Source: an uncultured Verrucomicrobiae bacterium (lineage in GTDB: Bacteria; Chlamydiota; Chlamydiia; Chlamydiales; Rhabdochlamydiaceae). From it: DNA of 64,000 bases. Made by a program: the position numbers and the translations under genes. Numbering within the stretch: position 1 is the stretch's first letter; the number at the start of each line of letters is the position of its first letter. Shown here piece after piece: positions 53,306 to 54,187 of this stretch. Below the pieces are notes generated by a model that was given only the letters and a program-made list of their open reading frames with translations, did no database searches and was not told where the DNA came from. The stretch is from NCBI GenBank assembly GCA_963731265.1, contig CAVSUE010000001.1:608001-672000 (forward strand), written 5' to 3'.

Positions 53306-54187
53306 ATGGTAGGTACTATTATGTCTTCAATTACAAGCATGGAATTAGATGTAGTAAGGGGTTGGTTTAAAGAAATTGAAAAATTTAATGATTATCAAGA
53401 ACCAGACGGAGTGAAAAAGTGGTTTGAAGAGGAGGCAGGTCTCGTCTATGAGGAACGTGGAGATAAAGCGAATTTTGAGTCTCTACAAGCAAAATTTGTG
53501 TCATTGTATATTGCATCAAAAAATAAGTTTCTAGAAGAAGCAACGAATGAAATCTATGATTTGGATCCGAAATCCGAAATAATGAAAGAGGACTATTTTA
53601 AGCAGAGATACAACCAGTTGATTCAAAGGATGCTCAAAGAAAAACTATGGGATAAATGGGAAGACACCCAAAAGTCTCCAAACACCGATGTGGAAGAGAA
53701 AGAATCTCAAATGCTCCGAGAAGAGCTACATAAGTTGCCCACTGCCAAAGACCTTCAAGTGTTTCAAGCCATGGTATATAGGAAATTAATCACCCAAGAC
53801 CTCAGTTCAAAAATTTTAAATGAATCAGCTGATGTCCAGAAATGGTTTCAGAAGCATGCTTATGATTCAGTTTTAATAGAAAAGTGGTTTCGTGATGCTG
53901 GTTATGTAGACCCTTCAAAAGTAGATAAGTGGTTTCGTGATGCTGGGTATGTGGAACCGAATTTTGGAGAAAAGTTTCAATCCTCCATTTCTGCTATCGA
54001 AAAAGAAGTAGTTAATTTTTTTGGATTGGAAACAACAGAAAAAGAGGCAAAAGAGCAATCCGAGAATCAGAAACTCCGGACTAGGCTCGATGCTTTATAT
54101 GAACTGCCCCACGCAAGTTCTATAGAAAAAAATACGATTCCATCGGAAGAAGAACTCAATGCAAGATTCATTGCTTTAAAAGGCTGA
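53306..54187 (+). CDS. Hypothetical helical protein with C-terminal MIM1-like motif
   Basis: Charged helical ORF, KWFRDAGYV twice, ends EEELNARFIALKG. Confidence 0.8.
   Translation: MVGTIMSSITSMELDVVRGWFKEIEKFNDYQEPDGVKKWFEEEAGLVYEERGDKANFESLQAKFVSLYIASKNKFLEEATNEIYDLDPKSEIMKEDYFKQRYNQLIQRMLKEKLWDKWEDTQKSPNTDVEEKESQMLREELHKLPTAKDLQVFQAMVYRKLITQDLSSKILNESADVQKWFQKHAYDSVLIEKWFRDAGYVDPSKVDKWFRDAGYVEPNFGEKFQSSISAIEKEVVNFFGLETTEKEAKEQSENQKLRTRLDALYELPHASSIEKNTIPSEEELNARFIALKG

Follow-up and report, generated by a model that had tools for sequence, protein, structure and literature searches.

The window analysed here is a 64,000-nucleotide stretch of the genome of an uncultured chlamydial bacterium (G000; 2.34 Mb in 2 contigs, 96% complete). 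A neighbouring gene for a topoisomerase subunit finds its best relatives, at 83 to 88% identity, mostly among sequences labelled Chlamydiae, including a bacterium of the Rhabdochlamydiaceae as well as Ca. Acheromyda pituitae. Another protein, from a genome of this family group, also bears the label Rhabdochlamydiaceae. Downstream of parC, an orphan gene, P0001, lies on a short segment together with gene and insertion sequence remnants:

52972..55845, unstranded: lineage-specific 2.9-kb segment holding the orphan; the closest relative (G003) lacks it at this site
52976..53096, unstranded: repeat element of ~120 nt whose ends are inverted; the genome's only related copies lie at 54730-54800 and 55702-55772
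53306..54187, + strand: P0001, intact ORF of 293 aa, start codon uncertain (Met 1, 6 or 12)
53877..53958, + strand: 15-residue repeat in P0001, two copies with KWFRDAGYV
54062..54100, + strand: upstream core-only motif of P0001, residues 253-265 (L257, R260, L261, L264)
54146..54184, + strand: terminal MIM1-type motif of P0001, residues 281-293 (E281, L284, R287, F288, L291, K292, one residue, stop)
54369..54707, - strand: GDP-mannose dehydratase / NAD-dependent epimerase gene fragment (Pfam profile)
54717..55785, unstranded: degraded insertion sequence, 93-nt inverted arms flanking a broken transposase-like frame

The closest relative, G003 (92-96% DNA identity), aligns to positions 51931-52971 and then to 55846-57000, with ~40 nt between, and a search for the 2.9-kb segment in G003 and G001 returned no match. 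Three further relatives (G002, G005 and G010) match only its repeat and gene-remnant parts. Because none of the five searched relatives holds the gene, gain of the segment is likelier than loss. Other members of the genus that we examined have different, unrelated ORFs downstream of parC, and the region after parC is a variable slot. The ~120-nt element at the start of the segment is probably an IS-end remnant, and the broken transposase-like frame (54969-55292) gives a weak match to DDE_5 (E 0.044).

The surroundings of the segment have features of their own. A 69-nt inverted repeat directly after parC (51764-51929), with 4 related copies in the genome, lies at the edge of the slot, and it is followed by a low-GC orphan of 317 aa (51937-52890, - strand) with an N-terminal coiled coil, which is present in G003 and has no family match. 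On the other side, positions 56069-56962 (+ strand) encode a eukaryote-type protein of the mitochondrial carrier family (Pfam Mito_carr, E 8e-11) that is extended at its N-terminus; this second host-like gene of the slot is 96% identical at the DNA level in G003. G003 also lacks a second segment, at positions 57000-60438, in which fragments of Rhs-repeat genes occur together with a 137-aa frame, possibly an immunity gene. Further along, a 196-aa gene (60497-61087, - strand) with what we take to be heme-oxygenase-like di-iron motifs stands ahead of a biotin-synthesis-like cluster and matches no Pfam or NCBIfam family.

P0001 has no detectable relatives

P0001 is an acidic and soluble protein, predicted to be all-helical, and both the GC (37%) and the GC3 (33%) of its gene fall within the lowest 2% of the 1436 genes in the genome. 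The first-pass annotation had called it an orphan, which held in every homologue search that we ran. Among 5.8 billion proteins no homologue was found, since the one candidate of 587 that passed was P0001 itself, and 1.84 billion representative proteins yielded nothing beyond P0001 and one artefact (P0002), rejected as a relative because it is a translated short DNA repeat. There was likewise no credible match in the genomes of 60 relatives (best E 0.016), no relative in GTDB genomes or viral contigs and no paralogue in its own genome. Pfam and NCBIfam gave no family above cut-off, the ESM Atlas gave no usable match for either P0001 or the G037 analogue described below, and the tail used alone as a query retrieved no similar protein and no PDB chain. 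An AlphaFold2 single-sequence model is all-helical with an unreliable mean pLDDT of 48, and Foldseek with this model returned nothing at E 0.001 or better.

P0001 was also compared with known classes of protein. No Snf7 or Ist1 core was matched by Pfam profile, no Pfam match to DUF582 was obtained, and the long bilobed hydrophobic segment of Inc proteins is not present (best 19-residue Kyte-Doolittle mean 0.79). By these sequence tests, P0001 is neither an ESCRT-III protein nor an Inc or DUF582 effector. Residues 2-21 include 5 Ser/Thr, a count equalled or exceeded by 16% of the genes in the genome, which makes the start of the protein no richer in Ser/Thr than usual, and promoter-like sites are near chance level (6 found, 5.3 expected). 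The duplication of KWFRDAGYV, also pointed out on first reading, was confirmed at residues 193-201 and 208-216; it corresponds to a 37-nt direct repeat that is 89% identical with a spacing of 45 nt, and looser K/G-W-F helices lie at residues 19, 38 and 179.

The tail of P0001 carries a terminal MIM1-type motif and an upstream core

MIM1 has been defined as [DE]xxLxxRLxxL[KR], where x is not proline (PMC12057046, PMC11998489), and this published consensus is the one that had been quoted in the first-pass annotation, which assigned a motif of this type to the extreme C-terminus of P0001. The assignment is correct: the 293-aa translation ends in EEELNARFIALKG, with residues 281-292 matching (D/E)xxLxxR(L/hydrophobic)xxL(K/R) without proline at any x. 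The only departure from the all-Leu form of the consensus is the Phe at position 8, and IST1 has Phe at the same place. By counting, Phe359 is the residue after Arg within the IST1 MIM1 (352-363; PMC4475061), as had been stated on first reading. The shorter core LxxR(hydrophobic)xxL is itself reported to be sufficient for MIT binding (PMC12057046). An acidic run precedes the terminal motif of P0001, and the MIM2 consensus, (L/V)Px(V/L)P, has no match in the protein.

A second, similar helix had been proposed some 30 residues upstream. The helix ENQKLRTRLDAL does lie at residues 253-264, and its L257 stands 27 residues before L284, but the similarity extends to the core only, as the upstream copy (254-265) has LxxRLxxL with Asn first and Tyr last instead of acidic and basic residues. 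The AlphaFold2 model places helices at 245-265 and 281-292 with coil between them at 266-280 (pLDDT 45-51 over this region). The two helices share 20 of 36 nt, a score equalled by an unrelated window, and may be products of one duplication.

Near-identical alleles of P0001 are carried by contigs from environmental runs over positions 53806-54134 at depths of 2-3, counting runs X2 and X3 once since they look like one data set. At this depth, the alleles show 6 substitutions, 5 of them non-synonymous, plus one in-frame 3-nt insertion. The environmental contigs stop short of the terminal motif (54146-54184), so that the allele data give a hint on the upstream core only; in one allele, again at a depth of 2-3, the four upstream core residues are unchanged while the helix has substitutions at positions 254 and 258.

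Chance expectation of the tail motifs

P0001 is the sole case of a strict C-terminal match among the 5109 ORFs of at least 80 aa in G000, which hold 5 strict matches at any position, and among 1989 non-overlapping genes no other has two cores within its last 50 aa. Composition and shuffles give an expectation of 0.012-0.017 terminal strict matches per genome. A second core within a 36-residue window is expected 0.0009 times in shuffles; of 60 other cores that lie in G000 genes, 1 has another core as its partner 15-45 residues upstream. Real genes exceed the shuffles: for just one spacing variant, at least 2 long genes among 128 family genomes end in the strict motif, from a screen that gave 35 matches in 27 of 129 genomes and in which 8 of the matches were examined. 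IspD is one of these two genes, and the strict ends of an IspD enzyme and a lipoprotein-like protein are chance. Over the whole scan (~250,000 windows), chance would supply 80-120 terminal strict matches, 0.07-2 of them with a second core. The terminal match in P0001 is by itself weak, and P0001 alone proves nothing.

MIM1-type tails in other Chlamydiota

DNA-pattern screens covered 401 Chlamydiota genomes. The first gave 84 matches in 70 genomes, and the 16 matches examined included, apart from P0001, one long frame in which the motif is terminal, compared with 0.11-0.14 expected. This frame (L276:1501-2265, + strand, in G276) encodes a 255-aa hypothetical protein downstream of glmS that ends in an acidic run plus DDDLEARLAALKKDD. 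Its protein family numbers 6 members across 129 family genomes, every one in genus g10, and 5 of the 6 follow a glmS-like gene:

L276 in G276: terminal motif
L277 in G221: terminal motif
L278 in G129: USP-like domain
L279 in G354
L280 in G147
L281 in G312: Cys and His motifs

About 190 N-terminal residues are common to the members, and their tails differ. The terminal LxxRLxxL(K/R) is found in two of the six, G276 and G221, which are 44% identical and the second of which ends in DLQARLAKLRE; the other four are without it. The G129 member instead has a domain that looks USP-like, from a match to Pfam UCH at E 0.0002, which falls under the cut-off. The Cys and His motifs of the G312 member look OTU-like by eye, a reading left unsupported by Pfam, by a PDB search and by folding. 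The two remaining members have neither a MIM1 core nor a USP-like or OTU-like tail. The glmS-linked family is a better test of motif conservation than P0001.

The second screen required three acidic residues before the motif and did not require a stop after it, a pattern shaped by P0001 and the G276 protein, both of which were excluded from its counts. It returned 125 matches in 105 of the 401 genomes; 70 + 3 were examined and 52 were dropped by eye as non-strict (Phe or Ser at the core, an in-frame stop or no final K/R). The strict candidates in frames of at least 100 aa represent 10 further families. In 7 of these the motif is internal, at least 55 aa from the stop, and they include Der, a tail-specific protease, RecQ, a TPR protein and a glycosyltransferase. 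In the other three it is no more than 25 aa from the stop (0.83 expected, P 0.04, with the 25-aa cut-off picked after the data were seen), and in only one of them no more than 5 aa (P 0.18). Terminal placement alone, with the design cases removed, is not significant. A second upstream core, 31 or 37 residues away, is present in 2 of the 3 near-terminal families, in none of the 7 internal ones and in none of 19 near-miss families. At a background of 0.004-0.017, two of three has P 4e-5 to 9e-4, for a tandem test likewise picked after the data were seen; within the 10 strict families the association of near-terminal and tandem placement has a Fisher value of 0.067, and the difference between strict and near-miss motifs is not significant (Fisher 0.11-0.13).

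The two proteins with a second core are as follows:

L284:1497-1967 (G097:C37), - strand: 157-aa hypothetical protein among men genes (menB adjoins)
L319:902-2389 (G037:C22), + strand: 496-aa hypothetical protein beside lepA

The G097 protein has two strict MIM1 motifs, at 111 and 148, the second of which ends one residue before the stop. It was not found in the congeneric genome G060, its frame overlaps the end of the upstream frame, and it could form one portion of a longer, shifted gene. The tail of the G037 protein is arranged as a MIM1 core at 433, an L-P-P-L-P match to MIM2 and a strict MIM1 at 464, and one other genome searched held no homologue. Both proteins sit among bacterial genes, their genomes belong to families other than that of G000, and their likeness to P0001 is confined to the tail (best E 0.025). 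A DNA pattern for tandem cores matched 149 of the 401 genomes, mostly as noise, and recovered P0001 and the G097 and G037 proteins; 36 further loci translated among the matches listed gave no new terminal case, and the other listed matches were dropped by eye. Taken together, the recurrence in G097, G037 and the glmS-linked family supports the idea that these predicted tails are a recurring design, and we rate this support as real but moderate.

Two other sequences came to light in these comparisons. A low-complexity charged frame of 179 aa (L313:1555-2091, + strand; G434:C5) has an acidic-prefixed core 11 residues before the stop, with Asn for K/R, and is a possible further tailed case. Among viral contigs, the tightest pattern had a single exact match, a 241-aa frame (L392:817-1542, + strand) with a MIM1-like end that has Pro at a variable position. 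It lies upstream of apparent head genes and, from its position and composition, looks like a phage capsid scaffold. With this phage protein as the case in point, similar terminal helices occur in prokaryotic systems without a eukaryotic partner.

Host setting of G000

Known chlamydiae all depend on a eukaryotic host. G000 encodes SctV (888 bits, cut-off 692), the one type III marker found, and from SctV alone we assign it a predicted type III secretion system. A profile search for MIT or Snf7 genes in G000 gave no match. Across the phylum, an MIT search gave weak matches in 11 of 300 genomes; 7 of these loci were translated and none was Vps4-like, all looking either TPR-type or unrelated. A first search of viral contigs for Vps4 found nothing.

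Discussion

To our knowledge, the bacterial effectors known to touch ESCRT work at earlier steps than the one considered here. No bacterial MIM1 mimic was found in the literature searched, which was largely open-access. Viral precedents are better documented. Ac93 of the baculovirus AcMNPV is reported to bind Vps4 and Vta1 through a C-terminal MIM1 (PMC11998489), and P0001 would resemble it as a non-host protein with a C-terminal MIM1 for Vps4's and Vta1's MIT domains, an activity that is predicted for P0001. Ac93 is described there as a conserved viral core protein with an ESCRT-III-like layout that was tested by mutation, whereas P0001 is a bacterial orphan with two cores that is known from sequence. 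The HCMV protein pUL71 is reported to recruit VPS4 via vMIM2 (PMC11218997), and motif mimicry by a pathogen tail directed at VPS4 is also what we propose for P0001. The motif itself differs, as pUL71 is described as using MIM2, an extended, Pro-rich element for the helix 1/3 groove, and P0001 lacks (L/V)Px(V/L)P. With the tails of the ESCRT-III proteins CHMP1, CHMP2, CHMP3 and IST1, P0001 has in common the consensus spacing, the acidic run and the extreme C-terminal place, in P0001 after a coil predicted at low confidence. It shares the Phe position with IST1, which has a MIM2 and MIM1 pair in contrast to the two MIM1 cores of P0001. Unlike ESCRT-III proteins, P0001 is bacterial and has no ESCRT-III core, and its docking to MIT domains is predicted from the motif.

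Chlamydiae are already connected to ESCRT. The DUF582 effectors CT619, CT711 and CT712 of Chlamydia trachomatis bind Hrs and Tsg101, and ESCRT is reported to be dispensable for chlamydial growth in vitro (PMC5053991). For chlamydial extrusion, VPS4A is reported as needed, with support also from CHMP4B and ALIX (PMC6560402), and a review from 2023 states that the effectors building ESCRT-decorated vacuoles are still to be determined (PMC10159163). As a proposed effector, P0001 can be likened to the DUF582 proteins, which are described as chlamydial type III effectors that bind ESCRT. They differ in that the DUF582 effectors are described as using folded domains on ESCRT-0 and ESCRT-I, whereas P0001 would act at the ESCRT-III/VPS4 step.

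One alternative is that the motif arose by chance, P0001 being a fast-evolving orphan whose terminal helix is acidic and rich in Leu; P0001 could then still be an effector with some other target. We regard this as unlikely. In its favour, the pattern is common inside housekeeping folds such as Der, the tail-specific protease and RecQ, about 100 terminal matches are expected scan-wide, the expectation per genome is 0.012-0.017 in shuffles and real genes give, for one variant, at least 2 in 128 genomes, and no homologue of P0001 was found in which the motif could be seen to be kept. The upstream core, however, would need a second coincidence (0.0009 from shuffles to 0.017 empirically), and chance leaves unexplained both the tandem cores in two unrelated chlamydial orphans and the terminal core retained at 44% identity in the glmS-linked family. 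That the tail was captured from an ESCRT-III or IST1 gene of the host, or that the gene is a decaying passenger with a relic motif, might be argued from the broken neighbours in the insert (the dehydratase fragment and the dead IS) and from the 5 of 6 allele substitutions that change an amino acid, as under relaxed selection. That same excess also fits diversifying selection, and the depth of 2-3 makes the calls uncertain. Since the frame is intact over 293 codons, the sole allele indel is in frame, P0001 resembles neither Snf7 nor Ist1 families, and searches with the tail retrieved no similar protein and no PDB chain, we find capture or decay the least probable of the explanations considered.

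A genuine docking helix might instead serve a prokaryotic or phage partner (a chaperone, a protease adaptor or a capsid-type protein), in a gene that arrived on a mobile element. The low GC of the gene and the IS-like ends that bound the insert are in keeping with such an arrival, and the single viral match of the tightest pattern is a phage scaffold-like protein with a similar end. The phage motif contains Pro, which the published MIM1 definition excludes (PMC12057046) and which P0001 does not have. Moreover, no phage genes adjoin P0001, viral contigs hold no relative of it, and the strict end occurs in no other G000 gene, which argues against a family of tagged clients. A prokaryotic partner is improbable in our judgement, if a little less so than capture or decay.

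The reading we favour, and consider on balance slightly on the probable side, is that P0001 is an effector that is secreted and, through its tail, binds MIT-domain proteins of the host such as VPS4, Vta1/LIP5 or USP8. The first-pass annotation had likewise proposed a host-mimic effector, which fits the host-associated setting (a chlamydial genome with SctV), the lack of an MIT or Snf7 gene of its own in the profile search and the recurrence of cores in unrelated orphans; the recurrence strengthens a host-mimic interpretation that is plausible from the motif. The partner is less secure and is not fixed by the motif: spastin, which that annotation names beside VPS4 as a binder of MIM1, is reported to grip helices of this kind in another groove (Type 3; PMC9477494). 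P0001 and the similar, unrelated chlamydial tails suggest a bacterial mimic of the ESCRT-III handle.

On this proposal, P0001 would be a soluble effector that an environmental chlamydia gained recently and sends into its eukaryotic host cell, with type III secretion as the probable route. Its flexible tail would offer one full and one core-only MIM1 helix to host MIT domains, at their helix 2/3 groove. VPS4 together with LIP5 is described as displaying up to 30 MIT domains and relying on avidity (PMC9477494), and two motifs 27 residues apart might bind with avidity where MIT domains are multiple, as in the VPS4 hexamer or in tandem-MIT proteins like Vta1/LIP5. The helical N-terminal part, which holds the Trp-Phe repeats, would set the location of action, perhaps through membrane or cargo targeting, which is a guess. 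USP8 and AMSH are listed in the same source as deubiquitinases with MIT domains (PMC9477494), and the predicted outcome is that VPS4 or an MIT-bearing deubiquitinase is recruited to the vacuole or titrated off ESCRT-III.

A broader proposal, to which we give somewhat less than an even chance, is that environmental chlamydiae repeatedly and independently evolved secreted MIM1-mimic effectors, often tandem, for VPS4, Vta1/LIP5 and USP8, with four origins represented by P0001, the G097 protein, the G037 protein and the glmS-linked family of g10. If this were true, the tail of the g10 family would alternate with a USP-like domain, as if recruitment of a host deubiquitinase replaced carrying one. 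Mimicry of MIMs is documented for viruses in Ac93 and pUL71, and the P0001 candidate would extend it to bacteria. If the tails bind, they would provide a short motif by which such effectors might be spotted among otherwise unannotatable orphans, and they would give intracellular bacteria a peptide-level route over vacuole repair, multivesicular sorting or exit.
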